From Candidatus Omnitrophota bacterium (GTDB lineage: Bacteria > Omnitrophota > Gorgyraeia > Gygaellales > Profunditerraquicolaceae), in the NCBI GenBank assembly GCA_041308845.1, contig JBFZAT010000011.1:9540-73539 (forward strand): a DNA stretch of 64,000 nucleotides. Direction: 5' to 3'. Of this stretch, positions 41,775 through 51,419 are shown piece after piece. The translations under genes and the position numbers were made by a program. The stretch's first letter is position 1; the number at the start of each line of letters is the position of its first letter. The notes below the pieces were generated by a model, which saw only the letters and a program-made list of their open reading frames with translations, was not told where the DNA came from and did no database searches.

Positions 41775-43712
41775 ATGAAAATCAAAGAACAAAAGATGGT
41801 TTCGGCAGAGCAAAGGAAATATTTACGTTTAGATACGGTTTTCCCAGTGCAATTCCGCTTGGAAGAACAGACGAAAGAAGTTTTGCTGAGTGGTTGGCTA
41901 CAGGGATTTACCAACAATATCAGCCGGGGTGGGATATGCCTGACGATTAATAACCTGGATCCGCAGTTGGGCAAGCTGCTCAGGCAGAAAGATGTGAAAT
42001 TATCATTAGAGATCGATATTCCGACCAGTCGGAAATCTATCCCTGCCCGAGGAGGGATAGTTTGGGTGAGGGATGTTCCGGGCGAGAAACCCCAGTATGT
42101 CGTGGGGGTTAACTATGACTATATTTTGGTTCAACACAATAATCAGCTCATGCGCTATGCTTGGTTTAGAAAACTATTTGCCCCGTTAATTTTAGCTGTA
42201 GTAATAGTGCTCGCCTCAGGGTTGAGCATCAATAGTTATCTGAATTTTAAATTGACCCAAGGTAATAAGCTATTAATTGAAAAACTAAGCGGGGTCTTGC
42301 AAGATTCAGAGTTGGCCAGACAAAGAATTGAAAAGGCAGTCGCCCAAGGGGAAAATTTTCAGTCTCAGCTCAACCAGCTGCAGGCGCGTATCAAATTCCT
42401 GGAAGCTGAGAAGCTAGAGATTCAGGCCGGAGATGCAATCCAGATTGGAGAACTCAATGATTTAATCGCTGGTTTGACCAAAGAAAAAAAGAATTTAGAA
42501 GAAACGCTGGCAGAGATTAAACGTGATGAAAGCCAGGCGGTTCAAGAATTAGTGCAGTTGGATGACCGGAAACTGGTTTTGGAAAAAGCTAATTTTGACA
42601 GGATGTACCAATGGTTAAAGCTTCATCAAAATCAGCGTTCCGGATTAGTGGCTAGTTTTGAAGGGGATAAGGAAATTACCAGCTGGTCTTTTACTTATGA
42701 CCTGGCTTTATTAGTGCAGGCTTATGCCAAATTTGGAGATTTTGACCGAGCTAAAAAAATTCTGGATTTTTTTAACCATGGAGCCAAAAGAGAAAACGGC
42801 TGGTTTTTGAATGCCTATTATGTAGATGATGGTGCTCCGGCAGAGTTTATTATGCATAGCGGGCCCAACCTGTGGGTGGGATTAGCAATTCTACAGTATA
42901 TGCAAGCTACGCAGGATAAAAGTTATTTAGAGTTAGCCGAAAGTATTGCCCAGACAATTATGGATTTACAGCGGCAAGATGCTTTTGGCGGTATCCGCGG
43001 CGGTCCCCACATGGAATGGTATGCTACCGAACATAATTTGGACGCCTACGCATTTTTTAATATGCTGGCTGAGGTGACCCAAAAACCGGTTTATGCCCAA
43101 GCCGCCCAGAAAACTATAGACTGGATGGTTAGTAATACCTATGCTCCTCCGGATTTACCAGTTAAACGCGGTAAGGGGGATGCTACAATTGCCACCGATA
43201 CTTATGCCTGGAGTATTGCGGCGGTGGGTCCGGAAAAATTGTTTGCTTTAGGCATGGATCCTGATCAGATCCTGGAATTCGTAGAAGAAAATTGCAGCGT
43301 GGAAGTTGTTTTTAAACGTTCCGATCAAGAGAGCGTAAGAATTAAAGGGTTTGATTTTGCCCCACAGCGACATACTGCCCGGGGCGGGGTAGTTTCTTCT
43401 GAATGGACAGCCCAGATGATTGTGGCTTATAAAATTATGGATGAGTTTTATACCGAAAGAGGAGATTTGACTAAAGCCGCCGGTTACGCTAAGAAAGCCC
43501 AGATCTATTTAAATGAATTAGGCAAGATGATTATTTCTAGCTCCTCGGCTTCCGGGCAAGGACAGGGCTGCCTGCCTTACGCTACTTTAGACCAAGTAGA
43601 TACCGGCCATGGCTGGATGACCCCTAAGGGCAGCCACACAGGTTCGGCCTCTGGTACCGCCTATGCCCTTTTTGCTTATTACGGTTTTAATCCTTTAAAG
43701 TTAAAAAAATGA
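41775..43712 (+). CDS. PilZ-domain protein with TM helix, coiled coil and a C-terminal alpha/alpha-toroid-like domain
   Basis: QRKYLRLD...NNISRGGICL (RxxxR...DxSxGG PilZ signature), one TM (LFAPLILAVVIVLASGL), ~100-aa heptad region, then repeated helical-hairpin blocks (YDLALLVQAY, NLWVGLAILQY, NLDAYAFFNML, DTYAWSIAAV). Confidence 0.6.
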   Translation: MKIKEQKMVSAEQRKYLRLDTVFPVQFRLEEQTKEVLLSGWLQGFTNNISRGGICLTINNLDPQLGKLLRQKDVKLSLEIDIPTSRKSIPARGGIVWVRDVPGEKPQYVVGVNYDYILVQHNNQLMRYAWFRKLFAPLILAVVIVLASGLSINSYLNFKLTQGNKLLIEKLSGVLQDSELARQRIEKAVAQGENFQSQLNQLQARIKFLEAEKLEIQAGDAIQIGELNDLIAGLTKEKKNLEETLAEIKRDESQAVQELVQLDDRKLVLEKANFDRMYQWLKLHQNQRSGLVASFEGDKEITSWSFTYDLALLVQAYAKFGDFDRAKKILDFFNHGAKRENGWFLNAYYVDDGAPAEFIMHSGPNLWVGLAILQYMQATQDKSYLELAESIAQTIMDLQRQDAFGGIRGGPHMEWYATEHNLDAYAFFNMLAEVTQKPVYAQAAQKTIDWMVSNTYAPPDLPVKRGKGDATIATDTYAWSIAAVGPEKLFALGMDPDQILEFVEENCSVEVVFKRSDQESVRIKGFDFAPQRHTARGGVVSSEWTAQMIVAYKIMDEFYTERGDLTKAAGYAKKAQIYLNELGKMIISSSSASGQGQGCLPYATLDQVDTGHGWMTPKGSHTGSASGTAYALFAYYGFNPLKLKK

Positions 43713-44356
43713 AACGTAAATTAAGCAGGATATTTAAACATCTCTACTCTGATTTAGGGCCGCAACACTGGTGGCCGGCAGATAGTGTTCTGGAAATTAT
43801 GGTCGGGGCGATTCTTGCACAAAATACCAGCTGGTCCAATGTGCAGAAAGCGATTTTGAATCTTAAGCAAAAAAAACTTCTAAATGTCCGCCGGTTATCC
43901 CGGGTAAAAACTGATAATTTGGCTGCTTTGATTAAAAGCGCAGGCTGTTATAATCTTAAGGCTGCTCGACTAAAAAACTTTCTTAAATTCTTTATCGATG
44001 GCTATCGCGGGCAAAGCAAGCTATTGGGTGCCCAAGATTGGAAAATTTTACGTAAACAATTGTTAGAAGTCAAAGGCATTGGGCCGGAAACCGCGGATTC
44101 TATTCTGCTCTATGCTTTAAATAAGCCAGTTTTTGTAGTGGATGCGTATACTCAGAGGATATTGCTGCGGCATGGATTAATTAATAAACCAATAGATTAT
44201 TATTCATTGCAGGATATTTTTATGCGCCACCTCAAGCCTGATGCGTGGATGTTTAACGAATATCATGCTTTATTGGTTAAAATAGGCAAGGATTACTGCC
44301 GCAAACAAAATCCTAAATGCGAGGTTTGCCCTTTATGGTCGATAAGAAACGCCTAA
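43709..44356 (+). CDS. HhH-GPD superfamily base-excision DNA glycosylase (EndoIII-related) with a C-terminal 4Fe-4S Cys cluster
   Basis: ILAQNTSW...VKGIGPETADSILLYAL...VVDAYTQRI, C-terminal CRKQNPKCEVCP. Confidence 0.65.
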   Translation: MKRKLSRIFKHLYSDLGPQHWWPADSVLEIMVGAILAQNTSWSNVQKAILNLKQKKLLNVRRLSRVKTDNLAALIKSAGCYNLKAARLKNFLKFFIDGYRGQSKLLGAQDWKILRKQLLEVKGIGPETADSILLYALNKPVFVVDAYTQRILLRHGLINKPIDYYSLQDIFMRHLKPDAWMFNEYHALLVKIGKDYCRKQNPKCEVCPLWSIRNA

Positions 44357-45462
44357 TCAAGACACTCCAACAATTGATTGCTTTGGATTCGCAAAATCCT
44401 CCCGGTGATGAACGGAGTATTGCCGGGTTTGTCAGTAGTTATTTAAAAAAAATAGGATTTAAGGTCCGGCTGCATACATTTAAAGCCAAAAGAATTAATG
44501 TAGTAGGAGTTTGGGAAGGTAGAAAACGCGAAAAATCGCTGTTAATTACTCCGCATTTAGATACGGTTCCGGCCGGAACCAACTGGAAAACTCCGCCGCT
44601 AGAGGCCAGAATCATCGGTAACCGCATTTATGGTTTAGGGGCTACCGATTGTAAAGGGAACCTGGCCTGTGCTTTAGAAGCGATGAGCGCTTTGGCACAG
44701 AAAAAAGTTAGGCTTAACTATGATTTAGTGTTGGCTGCGACTGCCGATGAAGAAAGCGGGTCGGCTTGGGGACTGATTCCTTTGCTTAAACGTAAGCTTT
44801 TAAAAGTTGATGCGGCGGTAGTTTTGGATGCCGATGATTTCGAGATTGTCATTACGCAAAAAGGGCTGATGCATTTAACGCTGAGCCTAAAAGGAAAAAA
44901 AGCGCACGGTGCATATCCTTGGTTAGGAGTGAATGCCATAGAGCTAGCAGCTAAGATTATCGGCGACCTTAAAAGTAAGCATCAGGATTATATTAAAAAT
45001 AAATATTTGCGGCCACCTAGCGTTAATGTCGGGACGATTAAAGGCGGAGACAAGGTGAATGTTGTCAGTGACTGGTGCGAATTGGAATTGGATTTCCGAT
45101 TTCTGCCTGGCTCAACCGCAATCGAAATATTACGCTCTTTGAAAACAATTATTAACAGATATACTAGAGATTATAAAATTCAAATTCAAGGTATACAACC
45201 GCCTTATTATATCGCCCCAAATCATTCTTTAGTTCGTAGCTTGGCTCTAGCGATGCAAAGCTTAAAAATTAAACCGCGAATCAGCGGTTCAGAAGGAGCA
45301 ACCGTGATAACTTTCTTTAAAGCGCTGGGTATCCCGGCGATTGCCACAGGTTTTGGTTCTGAAGGTTGTGCGCATATCGCCGACGAATATGCCCGTTTAG
45401 ATAATTTATATAAGGGGGCGCAAGTTTTAGTAACTTTTTTGCAACAATATAGGTTTAGTTAA
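44335..45462 (+). CDS. M20-family metallopeptidase (ArgE/DapE-like deacylase)
   Basis: ITPHLDTVP, GLGATDCKG and ATADEESG metal-ligand motifs plus a dimerisation insert. Confidence 0.7.
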   Translation: MVDKKRLIKTLQQLIALDSQNPPGDERSIAGFVSSYLKKIGFKVRLHTFKAKRINVVGVWEGRKREKSLLITPHLDTVPAGTNWKTPPLEARIIGNRIYGLGATDCKGNLACALEAMSALAQKKVRLNYDLVLAATADEESGSAWGLIPLLKRKLLKVDAAVVLDADDFEIVITQKGLMHLTLSLKGKKAHGAYPWLGVNAIELAAKIIGDLKSKHQDYIKNKYLRPPSVNVGTIKGGDKVNVVSDWCELELDFRFLPGSTAIEILRSLKTIINRYTRDYKIQIQGIQPPYYIAPNHSLVRSLALAMQSLKIKPRISGSEGATVITFFKALGIPAIATGFGSEGCAHIADEYARLDNLYKGAQVLVTFLQQYRFS

Positions 45463-45484: not shown

Positions 45485-46474
45485 ATGGATGCTTTAATGA
45501 TGAAGAAAAAACCGCGCCTGAAAAAGCCTTATCTGATTGTGGCTTGGCCGGGGATGGGGGAGGTAGCTTTTAAGGCCGCAGAATATTTAATTCAAGCACT
45601 CAAGGCGCAGGAATTTGCTCGGATTATGCCGGACGATTTTTTTTATCTTTCCGGCAGTGTTATTTCAAAAGGGGTATTAGAGGTGCCGCTACTTCCCCAA
45701 GGGAAATTTTATTATTGGAAAAATATGGCAACTAAAGGCAGTAGCGCAAGCAAAAATGATCTAATAATTTTCTTAAGCAATGCCCAGCCGGATCTTTCCA
45801 AGGCGGATAGTTATGCCAAAGTGATTATCGGGCTTGCTAAAGATTTAGGTGTAGAATCAGTGGTGAGCTTTGCCTCAATGCCTCAGGCCACTGACCATAC
45901 TCAGGATCCCGCTGTATGGTTTGCCGCTACCGATCTGAACATCAAAGAGAGTTTTAAAAAATATAATTTTACGGCTTTAGTTGATGGGCAGATCAGTGGG
46001 ATGAACGGTTTATTTTTAGGTATGGCCAAGAAAGCCGGATTAAATGGATTTTGCCTTTTAGGGGAGATACCCCTTTACACTATCCAGATTGAAAATCCTA
46101 AAGCCTCCGCTGCTGTATTAACGGCTTTGGCAGCGATCTTGAATATCCAGATTGATGTCGAGCCCTTAAAAGAACAAGGCCGAATGATGGAGAATGAAAT
46201 TAATAAATTGCTGGAGTATTTAAAGGTAGGTAGCAGCGGGATTTCCGGGCCGATTGGCGAAGAAGAGGTAGAGTTAATTAAAAAAAGCCTTGGACAGCTT
46301 ACTAAGCTGCCTGTTTCGGTAAAAGAAAGAATCGAGAAGTTATTCGAAGAAAGCCGCCTGAATATATCTAAGGCCAAAGAATTAAAAATCGAGCTGGATA
46401 AATGGAATGTTTATAAAGAATACGAAGATAAATTTTTAGATCTTTTCAGAAAGAATATTGATCAGGGGAATTAG
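45485..46474 (+). CDS. PAC2-family protein (proteasome-assembly-chaperone-like fold)
   Basis: PYLIVAWPGMGEVAFKAAEYL N-terminal block and overall ~330 aa resemble PAC2/DUF75. Confidence 0.4.
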   Translation: MDALMMKKKPRLKKPYLIVAWPGMGEVAFKAAEYLIQALKAQEFARIMPDDFFYLSGSVISKGVLEVPLLPQGKFYYWKNMATKGSSASKNDLIIFLSNAQPDLSKADSYAKVIIGLAKDLGVESVVSFASMPQATDHTQDPAVWFAATDLNIKESFKKYNFTALVDGQISGMNGLFLGMAKKAGLNGFCLLGEIPLYTIQIENPKASAAVLTALAAILNIQIDVEPLKEQGRMMENEINKLLEYLKVGSSGISGPIGEEEVELIKKSLGQLTKLPVSVKERIEKLFEESRLNISKAKELKIELDKWNVYKEYEDKFLDLFRKNIDQGN

Positions 46475-46479
46475 TTTTT

Positions 46480-47121
46480 ATGCACTCAGGGGTTAAGGTC
46501 CTACTTTTTGATTTAGGCAGAGTATTGGTAGATTTTGATCATTTAAGATCAGCCGCCAGGATAGCGGCTTTTTGCGATAAAACCCCGCGTCAGATCTATG
46601 CTTTATTTTTTGAGTCTCCGGAAACCGTGGCTTTTGAGGCGGGGAAGATTACCCCAGAAGATTTTTATCTGCGGGTGAAAACAAAACTGGATTTAAAGTT
46701 AAGTTACGATTCTTTTGTGCCGATCTGGAACGATATTTTTTTTCTCAGCCCTAAAAACCGCTCAGTTTTCGGATTGCTTAATGCATTGCGTGCGCACTAT
46801 AAAATCGCGCTGCTTTCTAATATTAATATTCTGCATTATGAATATTTAAATAAAAATTTCCCGGTGTTTGGAGTTTTCGATAAAATTTTTCTTTCTTTTC
46901 AAGCGGGTTTCATCAAACCGGACCAGGCAATATATAATTTAGTAATCCGGGAGTTGGGAGTTAACCCGGAGGAGATATTTTATACTGATGATCGTCCAGA
47001 ATTAATTGCTAGCGCTAAAGTTTTGGGGTTAAACGGTTGTGTTTTTACGGATTTTGAGCGATTAATCAGCGATTTGGTAAAATTGGGTATAATTCTCCCC
47101 CGCGGGATTCCGCGGGAATAA
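46480..47121 (+). CDS. HAD-superfamily hydrolase
   Basis: VLLFDLGRVL (motif I DxG), SN motif II, FTDDRPE motif IV. Confidence 0.65.
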   Translation: MHSGVKVLLFDLGRVLVDFDHLRSAARIAAFCDKTPRQIYALFFESPETVAFEAGKITPEDFYLRVKTKLDLKLSYDSFVPIWNDIFFLSPKNRSVFGLLNALRAHYKIALLSNINILHYEYLNKNFPVFGVFDKIFLSFQAGFIKPDQAIYNLVIRELGVNPEEIFYTDDRPELIASAKVLGLNGCVFTDFERLISDLVKLGIILPRGIPRE

Positions 47122-47365
47122 AATCTCACGAAATTAATTTCGGATTTCTGGAGTTGGCCCCAATAAAAATTGTTTTTCTCGACGATAAAATCAAAGTTTT
47201 ACTCCTTTTAGCTAACCAAAAAATACTTGACAATGCCAAGATATTGTGGTAAAAAAATAACATAGCTACTACATTTTGCGTTGATTAACGGAGGCTTATA
47301 ACTAAGTTGGAAAAAATTGGATAAACCTTAAGGGCTCAGGCAAGATAATTCAAAGCGGGCCCTTA

Positions 47366-47440
47366 TTTTTTTGCCGCACTAGCGGCACACCGGCGTAATT
47401 CCAATAAACGCCGGGTGTAAACCGCACCAGCGGCAGAGAA
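47366..47440 (+). promoter_or_regulatory. Structured 5' leader: direct repeat CCGCAC(T/C)AGCGGCA flanking a CCGGCG...CGCCGG hairpin, upstream of the ATP-grasp/KamA operon
   Basis: Repeat copies at 47374-47387 and 47422-47435; hairpin 47390-47414; preceded by a terminator-like AAGGGC...GCCCTT-T7 and a TTGACA-N17-TAAAAA promoter near 47228-47256. Confidence 0.35.
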
Positions 47441-47477: not shown

Positions 47478-48467
47478 ATGAAAATAGTCGGGTTGACCTA
47501 TGATTTAAAAAGCGATTACAAGTTTAAAGAAGGAGATCCTCTAGATGCCAACGCAGAATTCGATTCTTTGTCTACAGTGGATGTGATCGCGGAGGCTATT
47601 TCGGCCAACGGCTTTAAGGTTAAAAAAATCGGTAATGCCGCTAATCTGTTGGAAAAAATCGATCATTTAGGGGTAGATATTGTATTTAATATATCTGAAG
47701 GTTTAAGCGGGAGAAACCGGGAATCTCAGGTTCCGATTTTGTTGGAAATGGCGAGTATTCCTTTTGTCGGCGCAGATGCATTGACTTTAGGATTAACCTT
47801 GGATAAAGTCATGGCTAAAAAAATTTTTATTGCCGAAAAAATCCCTACGCCTAAATTTTTCGAAGTTGGATCTGTAGAAAGCTTGATTGATCAGGATCAC
47901 TGTCAGTTTCCGTTGATTGTTAAACCGCGCTTTGAAGGTTCCTCTAAGGGGTTAACGGAAAATTCACGCGTGGAGAATACCGATGAGCTTAAGAGGCAGG
48001 TTGAATTTATCGTTAAAACCTATAAGCAGCCGGCTCTGGTCGAAGAATTTATTTCTGGCCAGGAGTTTACTGTAGCGATTGTGGGCAATGAAAATCCCGA
48101 GGTGATGCCGGTAGTGCAGATTAAGATCGACGGGAAATTGAAATTAAACGATAAATTCTACACCTTTGCGCGGATCACTTCTGATCGTTTGGAATATATC
48201 TGCCCGGCTAAAATTTCCAGCGAGCTCAAGAAAAGACTAGATGAAATAGCTTTAAAGGTTTACCGAGCGGTAGAGTGTCGGGATTTCGGCCGAGTGGACT
48301 TCCGGGTGGATAATAACGGGAATCCTTATGTTTTAGAGATCAATCCATTGCCATCTTTATCGACCGAAGATGTTTTTATGCTGGTGGCTAAAAATATCGG
48401 CATTACCTATGAGCAGATGGTAGGCAAGATCTTAACCAGCGCGATGCTTAGAAACGGATTAAATTAA
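47478..48467 (+). CDS. D-Ala-D-Ala-ligase-family ATP-grasp enzyme, paralog 1
   Basis: Ddl-like N-domain (IVGLTYDLKSD...VFNISEG), ATP-grasp core (FPLIVKPRFEGSSKG...LVEEFI.GQEFTV..VG...EINPLPSL). Confidence 0.7.
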   Translation: MKIVGLTYDLKSDYKFKEGDPLDANAEFDSLSTVDVIAEAISANGFKVKKIGNAANLLEKIDHLGVDIVFNISEGLSGRNRESQVPILLEMASIPFVGADALTLGLTLDKVMAKKIFIAEKIPTPKFFEVGSVESLIDQDHCQFPLIVKPRFEGSSKGLTENSRVENTDELKRQVEFIVKTYKQPALVEEFISGQEFTVAIVGNENPEVMPVVQIKIDGKLKLNDKFYTFARITSDRLEYICPAKISSELKKRLDEIALKVYRAVECRDFGRVDFRVDNNGNPYVLEINPLPSLSTEDVFMLVAKNIGITYEQMVGKILTSAMLRNGLN

Positions 48468-49472
48468 ATGCGTGTAGCCTTGACTTATAATTTGAAAAAG
48501 AAGGATCCTCTGAAACCGGCGGATTATTTTTCTGAATGTGATTCTGAAGAAACGATTAATTCTGTAGTCTCCGCGCTTAAAACTAAAGGGCATTCGGTTG
48601 AAGCGATTGACGTGGAATATCCGGCTTTGTTTTCCTATTTCAAGAATAATCGCGTGGATATGGTATTTAATATTGCTGAAGGTAAACACGGGCGTTTCCG
48701 CGAAAGCGAAGTTCCGGCAGTTCTAGATTATTTAAATATTCCCTACACCGGCTCCAGTACATTTTCTTTAGCCTTGGCTTTAAACAAAGCCTTGACTAAA
48801 AAAATCCTAAAAGCAGAGAGTATCCCCACCCCCAATTTTCAGCTTTTTGTCAAAGGAGATGAAGCCTTAGATGCGGACCTGAAGTTTCCTTTGATTGTTA
48901 AGCCTAACTGTGAAGGTTCAGCTAAGGGCATTAATAAAACAAATGTCGTGTATAATTCCAGTGATCTCCGGGTCAAGGTCAAGGAGTGTTTGTATGTTTA
49001 TCGCCAAGAGGCTTTGGTAGAAGAGTTTATTGAGGGTAAAGAATTGACTGTGGGCATTTTAGAAAACGGTAAAACCCGAGTGCTGCCGATTTTAGAGATT
49101 GATTTTTCTAGTTGCCAGAAAAGCGGTGAATATTTTTATTCTTGGAAAATGAAAGAGTTTCAGGGGAATCGCGAGTTAGGATTGGTGCCGGAATTCCACT
49201 GTCCGGCCCGGCTGGATAAAGATATCGAACAGAAAGTTAAAGACACTGCGCTACGTACGCATCGGGCAGTCGGCTGTCTAGATATTTCGCGCACGGATAT
49301 CCGTTTGGATAAATTTAATGTGCCCTATGTGCTTGAAATTAATCCTTTACCGGGGCTAGATCCCAAAGAATCGAATTTTCCTATTATGGCCTATGCTGCC
49401 GGGATGACTTATGAAGATCTTATTGAGGCAATACTGCTAAGCGCCTCGGAAAGGAAAAAGGGCTTAAATTGA
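48468..49472 (+). CDS. D-Ala-D-Ala-ligase-family ATP-grasp enzyme, paralog 2
   Basis: VALTYNLKKKD...VFNIAEG...FPLIVKPNCEGSAKG...LVEEFIEGKELTVG...EINPLPGL. Confidence 0.7.
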   Translation: MRVALTYNLKKKDPLKPADYFSECDSEETINSVVSALKTKGHSVEAIDVEYPALFSYFKNNRVDMVFNIAEGKHGRFRESEVPAVLDYLNIPYTGSSTFSLALALNKALTKKILKAESIPTPNFQLFVKGDEALDADLKFPLIVKPNCEGSAKGINKTNVVYNSSDLRVKVKECLYVYRQEALVEEFIEGKELTVGILENGKTRVLPILEIDFSSCQKSGEYFYSWKMKEFQGNRELGLVPEFHCPARLDKDIEQKVKDTALRTHRAVGCLDISRTDIRLDKFNVPYVLEINPLPGLDPKESNFPIMAYAAGMTYEDLIEAILLSASERKKGLN

Positions 49473-50656
49473 ATAATCCCGCAAGTGTAGAAAATCAAAA
49501 AACTCAGATCGAAACTCCTGTTCTTTACCGGCCCGCCAAACGCGCGCGCGATTATCAGCAGCTTTCTCTTTATAAGGATGTTAACCCTTTAGATTGGGAG
49601 GATTGGCATTGGCAGCTTAAACATAGAATCCGCACCAAGGAAGAGTTAATGCAGATTATTAAACTTACTCCGGAAGAGGAGAAAGGCATTGATAAAGCTA
49701 AAGGTAGGCTGGCCATGGCAATTACTCCTTATTGGGCCAGTCAAATTGATGCTGAAGACCCGAATTGTCCGATCCGCCGGCAATCCGTTCCGGTGAATGA
49801 TGAGTTTTCAATTTCTCCGCATGAGATGGCTGATCCTTGCGCCGAAGACCGAGATTCTCCCGCTCCGCATTTAGTGCATCGTTATCCGGACCGGGTCCTG
49901 TTATTATCTACTGAGCATTGCGCAATGTACTGCCGGCATTGTACTCGTCGGCGCTTAGTTGGCGATCATGAAGAGAAAGATCTTAATCCGGAAACTAAAT
50001 TTGACGCAGCGATTGAATATATTAAAGCTAACCGCAAGATTCGGGATGTTTTAATTTCTGGTGGTGATCCGTTGACTTTGGAGGATGCGGCGCTGGAGTC
50101 TTTAATTTCTAAAATCCGCGCTATATCGCATGTAGAATTGCTGAGGATCGGTACGCGCATCCCCGTAACTTTGCCGCAACGCATCACCGAAAATTTAGTG
50201 CAAATGCTTAAAAAATATTCTCCGATCTGGATGAGTATCCATTTCAATCATCCTAAAGAAATTACCAAGCGTTGTCAGAACGCTTGTGATTTACTGGCAG
50301 AAAGCGGCATACCTTTAGGCAGCCAATCCGTGTTGCTCAAAGGGATTAATGACCGGCCTTTTATTATGAAACGTTTGGTACATGACCTGCTGCAGATTAG
50401 GGTCAGGCCATATTACATTTACCAGTGTGATCCGGTTAGGGGCACGCAACATTTTCGTACCCCGGTAGCTACTGGGATAAATATTATCGAAAAATTACGC
50501 GGTCATACCTCCGGTTATGCTGTCCCGACTTATGTGATTGACGGCCCCGGCGGCGGCGGCAAAATCCCTGTGGGGCCGAATTATATTCTTTCTCAGGCCA
50601 AGGGTAAATATGTTTTGCGTAATTATAAAGGCAAGATCTATACCTACCTGGAATAA
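49469..50656 (+). CDS. kamA: KamA-family radical SAM aminomutase (lysine 2,3-aminomutase-like)
   Basis: CAMYCRHCTRRR (CxxxCxxC KamA signature), GGDPL, C-terminal DGPGGGGKIP. Confidence 0.8.
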   Translation: MNNPASVENQKTQIETPVLYRPAKRARDYQQLSLYKDVNPLDWEDWHWQLKHRIRTKEELMQIIKLTPEEEKGIDKAKGRLAMAITPYWASQIDAEDPNCPIRRQSVPVNDEFSISPHEMADPCAEDRDSPAPHLVHRYPDRVLLLSTEHCAMYCRHCTRRRLVGDHEEKDLNPETKFDAAIEYIKANRKIRDVLISGGDPLTLEDAALESLISKIRAISHVELLRIGTRIPVTLPQRITENLVQMLKKYSPIWMSIHFNHPKEITKRCQNACDLLAESGIPLGSQSVLLKGINDRPFIMKRLVHDLLQIRVRPYYIYQCDPVRGTQHFRTPVATGINIIEKLRGHTSGYAVPTYVIDGPGGGGKIPVGPNYILSQAKGKYVLRNYKGKIYTYLE

Positions 50657-50717: not shown

Positions 50718-51419
50718 ATGAAAATAAGCGCATTTGGTTTTGGCCAGATTCTTTTAGGCAAGCAGAATATTAAGGAATCCAGGTTAGACCAAGCCGATAA
50801 ATTAGTCAAGGCCAAGAAGAAAACTTATCCACAAGTGGAATTAGTCGGTCCGCAGGAGGCTTTGGAAGCTGAGATTATTCTGGTGAGCGAAGATGCCCAA
50901 ATGGATCTGATACTGAAGGACCTGGATTTTGTGGAGACGCGTTTGGCTAAAGCTCCGGCGGAGAATGAAAAAACAGTTTTAAATAAGATTAAAACTGCCC
51001 TGGAGAAAGAAGAGTTTATTTCCGGGTTGGGATTAAGCGCTGCGGAAAAAGAGATTATTTCTGGATATGGGTTATTTACTCAAAAGCTAATAGTGGCGGT
51101 TAAACCGGAAGAATTAGAAGATTTAGGCAGCCTGTTGGCCAGAGTTTTAGCTCAAAGCGGATTTATTTGTTTTTTAACCGTAGGAGACAAAGAGAATCGT
51201 GCCTGGTTAATTAAAAAAGGCACTACCGCCTGGGAAGCTGCCGGAGTTATTCATTCCGATATCCAGCAGGGATTTATCCGTGCTGAAATTATAAGTTTCG
51301 CTGATTTTATTGCCTGCGCAGGAGAAACTCAGGCTAAACAGGCAGGCAAGATGCGCCTGGAACAAAAAGATTATATTATGCAGGATGCGGATCTGGCTAA
51401 TTTTCGGTTCAACAAATAG
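50718..51419 (+). CDS. Standalone YchF C-terminal (TGS/DUF933-like) domain protein lacking the G domain
   Basis: C-terminal ...AWLIKKGTTAWEAAGVIHSDIQQGFIRAEII... matches the YchF TGS block; the N-terminal 150 aa have no Walker A/G motifs. Confidence 0.5.
   Translation: MKISAFGFGQILLGKQNIKESRLDQADKLVKAKKKTYPQVELVGPQEALEAEIILVSEDAQMDLILKDLDFVETRLAKAPAENEKTVLNKIKTALEKEEFISGLGLSAAEKEIISGYGLFTQKLIVAVKPEELEDLGSLLARVLAQSGFICFLTVGDKENRAWLIKKGTTAWEAAGVIHSDIQQGFIRAEIISFADFIACAGETQAKQAGKMRLEQKDYIMQDADLANFRFNK

Follow-up and report, generated by a model that had tools for sequence, protein, structure and literature searches.

Two tandem genes for ligases resembling D-alanine-D-alanine ligase (Ddl) stand directly upstream of a gene for a radical-SAM aminomutase on a contig of an uncultured Omnitrophota bacterium, which raises the question of what the three enzymes make together. 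The genes were analyzed within a 64-kb stretch of DNA, referred to as the window, and the name LigA is used for the Ddl-derived ligase family containing Lig1 and Lig2.

Lig1: 47478-48467, + strand, 329 aa, start ATG; LigA-type Ddl-fold ATP-grasp ligase
Lig2: 48468-49472, + strand, 334 aa, start ATG; paralogous LigA-type ATP-grasp ligase
KamA: 49469-50656, + strand, 395 aa, start TTG; member of the radical-SAM, PLP-dependent lysine 2,3-aminomutase family

Organization and conservation of the locus

The first-pass annotation had described reading frames with abutting and overlapping ends, and this layout was borne out. The TAA stop codon of Lig1 (48465-48467) directly abuts the ATG of Lig2, while the TTG of KamA and the TGA of Lig2 overlap by 4 nt and are read as TTGA. 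Both motifs that had been quoted for the aminomutase, HCAMYCRHCTRRR and GPGGGGK, were found in the KamA translation. Among 80 related Omnitrophota loci, the order Lig1-Lig2-KamA was kept in every one whose contig extends far enough, demonstrating that the trio is not a chance arrangement. Across the 51 Omnitrophota loci with all three genes, the median identity was 84-88% for the trio, compared to 57-70% for the neighbors purH, folC and mnmE. Such very strong conservation points to a product that matters to Omnitrophota cells. An anti-phage defence system was rejected, as PADLOC returned no match. The window contains no homolog of the GNAT acetyltransferases described below (tblastn, best E 0.12), and no transporter was found in it.

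The 356-bp gap upstream of Lig1 carries three candidate regulatory features:

47227-47255, + strand: candidate promoter, with -35 element TTGACA at 47227-47232, a 17-nt spacer and extended -10 element TGgTAAAAA at 47247-47255
47290-47324, + strand: GGAGG (47290-47294) followed by a candidate mini-ORF, TTG GAA AAA ATT GGA TAA (47307-47324; MEKIG)
47330-47372, + strand: intrinsic-terminator-like hairpin with U-tract, AAGGGCUC...GGGCCCUU; candidate attenuator before Lig1

TTGACA is present at the equivalent place in 76 of 79 Omnitrophota loci, and we infer from its sequence that the first element is the promoter of the trio. The primary sequence of the box GGAGG...TTGGAAAAA is likewise kept across the Omnitrophota loci; the candidate peptide reads MEKIG in 29 of them and MEK, MKK or longer elsewhere. 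The hairpin was matched by a regular expression in 72/79 loci and was the only structure supported by RNAalifold (6 pairs, 2 covarying). As the T-tract ends 0-11 nt 5' of the Lig1 ATG in about 25 loci, read-through is needed to reach Lig1. A known riboswitch was rejected, since the gap gave no Rfam match at E <= 1, sub-threshold matches to whalefall-1 were located elsewhere, and RNAalifold backed the terminator hairpin and no aptamer. Expression in Omnitrophota thus appears to proceed from a conserved promoter through a putative leader of mini-ORF and terminator into the trio.

Properties of the aminomutase and the two ligases

KamA harbors the Pfam domains Radical_SAM and LAM_C and aligned to Clostridium lysine 2,3-aminomutase (LAM, PDB 2A5H) with 485 bits (residues 32-395 against 6-367). 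In this alignment the radical-SAM motif CxxxCxxC (CAMYCRHC) and the lysine of GGGGK are identical, and both D293 and D330 of LAM are kept. Asp293 and Asp330 are presumably the residues with which the C. subterminale enzyme binds the epsilon-amine of lysine, Lys and Asn taking their places in glutamate mutase; both were retained in 51-52 of 54 ligase-linked KamAs. KamA scored 362.8 against the family model TIGR00238 (cut-off 199) and 528.5 against the AblA model TIGR03820, marginally above the cut-off of 525.4, which the KamA homolog of locus L092 did not reach (475.6). The protein is a short form that stops at LAM residue 367 of 416, without the C-terminal ~50 residues. The Cys-rich zinc-site domain at the C-terminus is therefore absent, and Cys268, which we take to be a zinc ligand of Clostridium LAM, is replaced by Arg. 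This domain is a feature of clostridial LAM and not of the whole family. Judged by its sequence, KamA is an aminomutase of the lysine-2,3 type.

Both beta-lysine and beta-glutamate had been proposed as products of KamA. The LAM-type scores and the presence of both Asp residues support the former, whereas glutamate 2,3-aminomutase is disfavored by a score of 469 (cut-off 650), as is arginine 2,3-aminomutase by a score of 421 (cut-off 600). KamA was also rejected as an EpmB: its score against the EpmB model was 259.1 with a cut-off of 369.3, and efp genes were absent from the window and from the 7-8 kb around each of 173 loci. The earlier separation of the trio from the EpmA/EpmB route is supported by these results.

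Lig1 and Lig2 are paralogs with 39% identity (BLASTP 5e-74), and both matched the Pfam domain Dala_Dala_lig_C (PF07478; 3.7e-40 and 1.9e-35, respectively). The AF2 model of Lig1 (pLDDT 89) gave TM values of 0.78-0.85 to Ddl structures. DdlA, DdlB and VanA share the three-domain ATP-grasp fold and are the closest sequence relatives (LigA profile E 1e-52). The DdlB residues for ATP, Mg2+ and acyl phosphate (K97, K144, E180, E187, R255, D257, E270, N272) are identical in both ligases. The Lig1 catalytic residues K110, K149, E189, E196, R272, D274, E287 and N289 were invariant in 77 orthologs and those of Lig2 in 68. Because these residues are the same as in Ddl, the same chemistry is expected, namely formation of an acyl phosphate followed by attack of an amine.

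The residues that we take to bind D-Ala in DdlB (His63, Tyr216, Gly276 and Ser281/Leu282) are different. His63 is replaced by Glu in both proteins (E74 in Lig1, E71 in Lig2), Tyr216 by I233 in Lig1 and Lys in Lig2, Gly276 by Ser in Lig1, and Leu282 by Val in Lig1 and Asn in Lig2. Ser281 is D298 in Lig1, which falls in a clade with Asp at this position, and is retained in Lig2 as S302. These replacements were invariant in the 77 Lig1 and 68 Lig2 orthologs. The motifs of the family diverge as well: instead of the N-terminal GG-x-S-x-E-x-E-V-S of Ddl, LigA has Y-[DN]-L-K...A-E-F-D-S, and instead of H-G-x-x-G-E-D it has E-G-x-x-G-R-x-R-E, within the signature N-x-x-E-G-x-x-G-R-x-R-E carried by both Lig1 and Lig2. 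With the best NCBIfam Ddl model, PRK01372, Lig1 scored 192.0 and Lig2 198.7, both below the cut-off of 243, and all Ddl/Van equivalog models were far from their cut-offs. Neither the window nor the labelled genes of 80 Omnitrophota and 80 metagenomic loci showed mur, fts or ddl neighbors; in contrast to Ddl, LigA lies there outside cell-wall gene clusters and is fused to or adjoins KamA. A bona fide Ddl or VanA pair, which would have contradicted the first-pass reading, was rejected on the missed cut-offs, the replaced D-Ala residues, the missing dcw context and the existence of KamA fusions. As far as their residues tell, Lig1 and Lig2 are catalytically intact Ddl-fold enzymes distinct from Ddl and VanA.

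A function in peptidoglycan would nevertheless fit part of these data. The ligases could be divergent D-Ala-D-X ligases, or they could attach beta-lysine to the stem peptide as a substituent or bridge, in the manner of the ATP-grasp D-aspartate ligase of enterococci. The Ddl fold and Ddl as the closest sequence relatives, the Ser281 retained in Lig2, and the high conservation, which an envelope role would suit, are in its favor. According to the supplement of a study on a Nostoc lichen symbiont, an operon of LAM, SET and 'D-Ala-D-Ala ligase 3' is sparse and horizontally acquired, and a peptidoglycan role was put forward there, as an untested suggestion, from nearby murein genes (Gagunashvili and Andresson, 2018, PMC5987646). 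As described in that supplement, it resembles the trio in that a lysine 2,3-aminomutase is co-operonic with a Ddl-like ligase, and differs in having a single ligase and a SET methyltransferase instead of two ligases. However, the sub-threshold scores of both ligases in every NCBIfam Ddl/Van model, the replacement of His63 and Tyr216 (and in Lig1 also of Gly276 and Ser281) and the missing mur, fts and ddl neighbors argue against a peptidoglycan function, and fusions to KamA and GNAT are atypical of cell-wall genes. We consider it improbable.

Relation to a wider module and to known systems

Fusion proteins were collected by an exhaustive search of representatives of 50%-identity clusters, from which the best 150 were taken, and 80 diverse metagenomic loci were examined after a scan with a profile built from an alignment of 11 sequences. 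Ligase and aminomutase were fused in both orders, as Lig-KamA (P0187, L086) and as KamA-Lig (P0243, P0265), and KamA adjoined a ligase in 58/80 metagenomic loci. Together, these fusions and this adjacency indicate functional coupling of ligase and aminomutase. Among the 150 best representatives, 26 were two-domain Lig-Lig fusions, and fusions of a divergent ligase, LigB, to GNAT were also present. KamA-Lig-Lig-GNAT, with GNAT separate or fused, was found in 33 metagenomic loci, KamA-LigA-LigB-GNAT being the commonest arrangement with KamA. In about 18 of the 80 loci the ligase stood alone, mostly on short contigs or in a type with KamA about 3.6 kb downstream. The module occurs in Omnitrophota, Elusimicrobiota, Zixiibacteriota, Thermoanaerobaculia (Acidobacteriota), KSB1, Chloroflexota and others; ligase-KamA coupling itself was also seen in Elusimicrobiota, Anaerolineae and a Zixiibacteriota-like contig. 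Lig2 was rejected as the counterpart of LigB, since Lig1 and Lig2 both bear the LigA signature and score similarly against LigA. The trio is thus a variant without GNAT of the much wider KamA-LigA-LigB-GNAT module. KamA is absent from the 8 kb around two family members, L089 and L091, so use of beta-lysine need not extend to all LigA-type ligases.

In sister systems, fused Lig-Lig genes are followed by a Peptidase_S58 gene in two independent clusters. S58, the DmpA/BapA family, has beta-peptidyl aminopeptidases among its members. This arrangement raises the possibility that beta-lysine is polymerized by the enzymes, by itself or together with another residue, to an oligo- or poly-beta-peptide, which might serve as a cyanophycin-like reserve or a polycation and later be degraded by S58 beta-aminopeptidases. 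By analogy, the paired or fused non-identical ligase domains resemble the two active sites of cyanophycin synthetase, and Asp at the Ser281 position of Lig1 would match an acceptor that carries an amine, for instance an elongating beta-lysine chain. On the other hand, an S58 gene was found neither in the window nor in the Omnitrophota loci. The Lig-Lig fusions linked to S58 also have no KamA next to them, so that they may act on a D-amino acid and not on a beta-amino acid. A defined small product fits GNAT capping in other phyla better, and iterative action is not known for Ddl-type enzymes. Polymerization by the trio is therefore doubtful. Its broadest form, in which LigA and LigB are a natural beta-peptide machinery (oligo-beta-lysine or mixed beta/alpha) that gives many uncultured phyla a reserve or a polyamine-like polycation and is essential in Omnitrophota, is a long shot worth stating. 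If true, the S58 (BapA/DmpA) enzymes after Lig-Lig genes would be dedicated degraders of such beta-peptides, and BapA-type beta-aminopeptidases, which to our knowledge have been characterized mainly on synthetic beta-peptides, would be supplied with a natural substrate.

Beta-lysine is also the modifier of EF-P in the EpmAB system, where, as proposed here, a KamA-family enzyme yields beta-lysine that is then ligated at the expense of ATP. The ligases could accordingly attach it to a protein such as EF-P or a ribosomal protein, ATP-grasp chemistry replacing the LysRS-like EpmA; RimK or tubulin-tyrosine ligase acting on proteins would be the analogous models. Most module-bearing phyla are without known EF-P modification, and a core function would suit the very high conservation. 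Translation-related genes neighbor the Omnitrophota loci (a YchF-C-like protein and MnmE, an EF-G-like gene in relatives), S21 lies near L085, the module GNAT has weak similarity to RimI in NCBIfam, and L092 additionally encodes a RimK-like ATP-grasp protein. Against this, KamA is of the LAM/AblA type and not of the EpmB type, efp is missing from the 173 loci and the window, and the nearest relative of the ligases, Ddl, acts on small molecules. Furthermore, the two to three ligases, the acetyltransferase and, in the neighborhood of relatives, a GNAT-HDAC deacetylase fusion, an MFS transporter and peptidases resemble metabolite chemistry. Attachment to protein is, in our view, quite improbable.

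Other known systems share single aspects with the trio. AblA and AblB make N-epsilon-acetyl-beta-lysine, which methanogens and some bacteria use as a compatible solute. The aminomutase of the trio reaches the AblA cut-off and the module elsewhere includes a GNAT, but this GNAT has no AblB-family match, the window has none, and the one to three ATP-grasp ligases are without counterpart in the Abl pathway, so that the trio is distinct from AblA/AblB, as first supposed. In the pyrrolysine route, an unusual amino acid comes from a radical-SAM lysine mutase (PylB), and the carboxylate of this amino acid is joined to the N-epsilon of lysine by an ATP-grasp ligase (PylC). The likeness lies in pathway logic alone: PylB is neither KamA-family nor a PLP-dependent aminomutase, PylC did not appear among the 60 PDB entries listed, out of 96 that matched the LigA profile at E <= 0.01, and the trio has no PylD and a product that is not genetically encoded. 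The LigB-GNAT fusions resemble, by description, the Ngg/AsnO system, in which an ATP-grasp dipeptide ligase with a fused GNAT domain leads to the N-acetylated dipeptide solute N-acetylglutaminylglutamine amide; that system belongs to another ATP-grasp clade and has no aminomutase. In the full texts searched, a scope outside which the ATP-grasp survey of Iyer and Aravind (2009) lies, the supplement on the Nostoc operon was the sole trace of an aminomutase-ligase module, and no characterized one was found.

Proposed pathway and its significance

We favor, as the reading that is probably correct, that the trio is a self-contained cytoplasmic unit that builds a small peptide or amide containing beta-lysine and two amide bonds. 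Homology and specificity residues suggest that KamA would convert L-lysine to beta-lysine. In the steps that we infer to follow, Lig1 and Lig2 would each activate a carboxylate to an acyl phosphate with ATP and make a single amide bond in which beta-lysine takes part. The family-invariant Glu at the position of Ddl His63 is a candidate partner for the ammonium group of beta-lysine. Lig2 probably adds an amino acid, because it retains the Ser with which Ddl binds the carboxylate of the amino acid that comes in, and the invariant Asp at this position suggests that Lig1 probably accepts a cationic amine, for which a second beta-lysine, a lysine side chain or a polyamine are candidates. In other phyla the KamA-LigA core would be extended by LigB and the GNAT, and the final product there is probably N-acetylated. 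The small-molecule flavor of relatives and sister systems (GNAT, GNAT-HDAC fusion, MFS transporter, S58 peptidase) counts for this pathway, while the absence of a GNAT and a transporter from the window counts against it. Conceivable roles of the product are those of a solute, a polyamine-like cation or a building block of the envelope; it counts against an osmolyte that a nanobacterium living in fresh water or groundwater would not obviously need one.

Taken together, the trio most likely belongs to a widespread, uncharacterized pathway that joins beta-lysine into a small peptide-like molecule. The original idea of a beta-amino acid that is made and then ligated is supported, as each testable element held: a LAM-type KamA, ligases that are not Ddl, fusion or adjacency of the two activities, and the lack of an EF-P gene near any of the 173 loci and of an AblB-type GNAT in the window. 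Thousands of proteins of this family are annotated as 'D-alanine--D-alanine ligase' or 'ATP-grasp domain-containing protein'. Recognizing a separate family wired to beta-lysine synthesis would correct this annotation, which matters for cell-wall inference in uncultured phyla. The prediction, lysine to beta-lysine to an ATP-dependent amide product, involves three small soluble genes. Since the trio ranks with the best-conserved genes of the Omnitrophota neighborhood, it probably makes a metabolite central to these nanobacteria, and the pay-off could be a new class of beta-amino-acid metabolites, possibly including natural substrates of beta-aminopeptidases.

Layout and conservation of the trio

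The trio consists of two paralogous Ddl-fold ATP-grasp ligases, Lig1 and Lig2 (39% identical), and the radical-SAM aminomutase KamA. Its three open reading frames lie exactly where the first-pass annotation had placed them, and the junctions described there were borne out in the sequence: the Lig1 stop codon and the Lig2 ATG abut, and in the string TTGA the start codon of KamA (TTG) overlaps the stop codon of Lig2 (TGA). The trio and all surrounding genes share one strand, with a gap of 356 bp 5' of Lig1. No terminator-like site was found in the interval between KamA and the next gene, so that transcription may run on into the downstream genes.

Features in and around the trio (window coordinates; all genes on the same strand)
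44317-45462, M20 ArgE/DapE-type deacylase
45485-46474, PAC2 (proteasome-assembly-chaperone-like) family protein
46480-47121, HAD phosphatase
47227-47232, TTGACA of the conserved leader
47247-47255, extended -10 of the conserved leader
47290-47294, GGAGG of the conserved leader
47307-47324, candidate mini-ORF, opened by the box TTGGAAAAA
47330-47372, GC-rich hairpin and U-tract, intrinsic-terminator-like
47373-47440, GC-rich nested hairpins
47478-48467, Lig1, 329 aa
48468-49472, Lig2, 334 aa
49469-50656, KamA, 395 aa, TTG start
50718-51419, YchF-C-like protein, 233 aa

The window stems from an uncultured Candidatus Omnitrophota bacterium. Close relatives of Lig1 were all found in Omnitrophota MAGs, some of which carry the label 'uncultured Planctomycetales'. 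Across 80 Omnitrophota genome loci the order Lig1-Lig2-KamA was constant wherever the contig allowed it to be read, while the flanks varied, with genes inserted on either side. Measured against the window at the 51 loci where all genes are present, median identity was 84% for Lig1, 85.5% for Lig2 and 87.6% for KamA, whereas PurH reached 70%, FolC 57%, MnmE 67% and the YchF-C-like protein 69%. This argues that the trio is under unusually strong purifying selection. On a more distant Omnitrophota-like contig a lone Lig1-type ligase is directly followed by KamA, again in a purH-folC-mnmE neighbourhood.

The genes for the M20 deacylase, the PAC2 protein and the HAD phosphatase are syntenic 5' of the trio in most, not all, Omnitrophota loci. 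At the related locus L042 (6104-7850) and in some relatives, two extra genes, which by eye only resemble AIR-synthase/HypE-like and UPF0280/ApbE-like genes, separate the HAD gene from the leader and Lig1. In every Omnitrophota locus the YchF-C-like gene is kept 3' of the trio; its product in the window comprises the C-terminal YchF domain (DUF933) only, with an N-terminus that has no P-loop. A gene for a 651-aa EF-G-like GTPase, missing from the window, intervenes between KamA and the YchF-C-like gene in many Omnitrophota loci, L042 (11232-13187) among them. The whalefall-1 RNA model gave weak matches on either strand of 42012-42073 (22.9 and 19.3 bits, gathering score 37); they fall inside a PilZ-domain ORF and are probably due to chance.

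Of 79 Omnitrophota loci, 72 carry upstream of Lig1 a conserved unit of putative promoter, GGAGG, mini-ORF and terminator-like hairpin (47227-47372 in the window). The mini-ORF would encode MEKIG in 29 loci and a shorter or longer peptide elsewhere. The whole leader folds with z = -3.8, and RNAalifold support within it was confined to the hairpin. In about 25 loci 0-11 nt separate the end of the U-tract from the Lig1 ATG, too few to accommodate another promoter, so that Lig1 must be transcribed by read-through. No Rfam family matched the leader, which we read as a candidate attenuator-type element. The nested hairpins between terminator and Lig1 (GCCGCACUAGCGGCA, CACCGGCG...CGCCGGGUG) are present in few relatives only (loci L004, L021, L022, L032 and L033) and therefore look like an inserted repeat element.

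Predicted specificities of KamA and the two ligases

KamA residues 32-395 align to residues 6-367 of Clostridium subterminale lysine 2,3-aminomutase (LAM, PDB 2A5H) with 485 bits. KamA and LAM share the CxxxCxxC cluster motif, the lysine of GGGGK, and Asp293 and Asp330 (LAM numbering). From the LAM structure and work on the glutamate mutase, we take the two aspartates to hold the epsilon-ammonium group of lysine; glutamate 2,3-aminomutase has Lys and Asn in their place. Among NCBIfam models, KamA scored barely over the cut-off for AblA lysine-2,3-aminomutase (528.5, cut-off 525.4) and far under those for glutamate (469 vs 650), arginine (421 vs 600) and EpmB (259 vs 369). The lysine-specific aspartates were kept in 51 and 52, respectively, of 54 ligase-linked KamAs. 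KamA is thus predicted to be a lysine-type 2,3-aminomutase forming beta-lysine. It ends at the position of LAM residue 367 of 416, about 50 residues short, and carries Arg in place of Cys268. It would therefore lack the inter-subunit zinc site of LAM. Among ligase-linked KamAs, the C-terminal stretch beyond GGGGK can be as short as 30 or as long as about 100 residues.

Lig1 and Lig2 both contain the C-terminal ATP-grasp domain of Ddl. All PDB sequence matches at E <= 1e-5 were Ddl or Van ligases, and a profile built on the ligase family matched Ddl at 1e-52, the next family being L-amino-acid ligase at only 1e-16. An AlphaFold model of Lig1 (pLDDT 89, pTM 0.88), in which the omega-loop is the sole disordered part, superimposed on Ddl structures with TM 0.78-0.85 at 20-27% identity. 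The first-pass annotation had itself named a bona fide Ddl pair next to murF/ftsQ-type genes as the case that would speak against its reading. The chemistry is indeed alike and the ATP, Mg and catalytic residues K97, K144, E180, E187, R255, D257, E270 and N272 (E. coli DdlB numbering) are the same in Lig1, Lig2 and DdlB, but every curated Ddl/Van cut-off was missed (Lig1 192, Lig2 199 vs 243) and the substrate side is altered. His63 is replaced by Glu, Glu68 by Arg or Lys, Val152 by Lys and Tyr216 by Ile or Lys; specific to Lig1 are Gly276 to Ser and Ser281 to Asp, Ser281 being retained in Lig2. Shared and replaced residues alike were invariant across 77 orthologs of Lig1 and 68 of Lig2. The family also has a signature of its own, made up of an N-terminal Y-[DN]-L-K...A-E-F-D-S and of D-x-V-F-N-I-A-E-G-x-x-G-R-x-R-E-S-x-V-P. 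No cell-wall gene context was seen for the ligases in the window or among the labelled genes of 160 related loci. A Ddl identity was therefore rejected on the missed cut-offs and replaced substrate residues; with the catalytic residues intact, Lig1 and Lig2 are predicted to be active ATP-grasp amide ligases with new specificities rather than pseudo-enzymes.

From the active-site differences, substrates can be tentatively assigned. The invariant Glu at the His63 position would help to bind an ammonium group of beta-lysine; Lig2, with Ser281 kept, would take an amino-acid acceptor, and Lig1, with Asp at this position, a cationic one.

Coupling of ligase and KamA across phyla

Representatives of clusters at 50% identity were searched exhaustively, which yielded 1,153 clusters at E <= 1e-30. 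Fusions confirmed by Pfam comprised one Lig-KamA protein (representative P0187) and two KamA-Lig proteins (P0243, P0265). Two-domain Lig-Lig proteins of about 650-720 aa accounted for 26 of the best 150 of the 1,153 representatives, and their N- and C-domains belong to different clades. Gene contexts included Lig, an LRR protein, an HTH protein and then KamA in Elusimicrobiota, overlapping Lig and KamA in Anaerolineae, KamA-LigA-LigB-GNAT followed by a RimK-like ATP-grasp protein on a Zixiibacteriota-like contig, and on one contig a LigB-GNAT fusion downstream of a KamA-LigA fusion. LigA denotes the signature-bearing class, fused to or adjoining KamA, and LigB the divergent class without the signature, which is the one fused to GNAT.

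A metagenome scan with the family profile gave 80 loci with 41-49% identity to P0317, the first sequence of the query alignment. KamA stood beside a ligase in 58 of them and two ligases were present in 49; KamA-Lig-Lig-GNAT, with GNAT separate or fused, was found in 33/80 and KamA-Lig alone in 12/80. In five of the 80 loci (L093 8003-11269, L095, L096, L103 and L108) LigA comes first, then genes for a PAS-domain histidine kinase, a sigma-54 response regulator and a receiver protein, and last KamA with a second ligase. Ligase-only loci were mostly short contigs or contigs of this LigA-PAS kinase type that end too early. Both window ligases are of the LigA type, and no GNAT was found in the 64-kb window. 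Since LigA is the class linked to KamA and LigB goes with GNAT, the minimal conserved core is KamA plus LigA; LigA was duplicated in Omnitrophota, and LigB and GNAT were added in other phyla.

Predicted product and relation to known systems

No NCBIfam equivalog exists for LigA, LigB or the module GNAT, the latter matching RimI weakly. In six loci (L172 9224-11476, L148 and four more) a GNAT-related gene following KamA-LigA-LigB is fused to a histone-deacetylase/acetylpolyamine-amidohydrolase-type domain (750 aa and Pfam-checked for L172). An MFS transporter gene lies 3' of one KamA-LigA pair. In a sister system with no KamA nearby, found in two independent clusters, a Peptidase_S58 gene follows a fused Lig-Lig gene (L083 8001-11432, 724 aa fusion; L173 676-3811, 675 aa fusion); D- and beta-aminopeptidases are known members of S58, the DmpA/BapA family. 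None of the 173 loci examined has an efp gene nearby, and no defence-system match was obtained. Taken together, these observations suggest as product a small peptide or amide that is not of the alpha-L type and is probably cationic or N-acetylated, rather than a modified protein or cell wall.

The proposal that the trio makes a beta-amino acid and then ligates it gains support from the LAM-type scores and Asp pair, the KamA-ligase fusions and the frequent adjacency of the two genes. Its separation from known routes also held. The EpmA/EpmB pathway was rejected in view of the low EpmB score and the lack of an efp gene nearby. The window aminomutase belongs to the LAM/AblA group, but as ligases come in addition and an AblB-type GNAT is missing from the window, the AblA/AblB pathway was likewise rejected. 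PylB/PylC, with a lysine mutase and an ATP-grasp ligase, is the nearest analogue in logic, but ligase homology was absent among the PDB matches listed.

Full-text literature searches brought up no characterisation of the module, the sole trace being a supplementary note on lichen-symbiotic Nostoc. This note describes a LAM-SET-'Ddl type 3' operon, for which its authors suggest transfer of methyl-beta-lysine to an acceptor (PMC5987646). The finding is stronger and broader than a reading of the sequence by itself could see: the trio represents, in Omnitrophota, a predicted module for beta-lysine ligation that is widespread, mis-annotated and uncharacterised.
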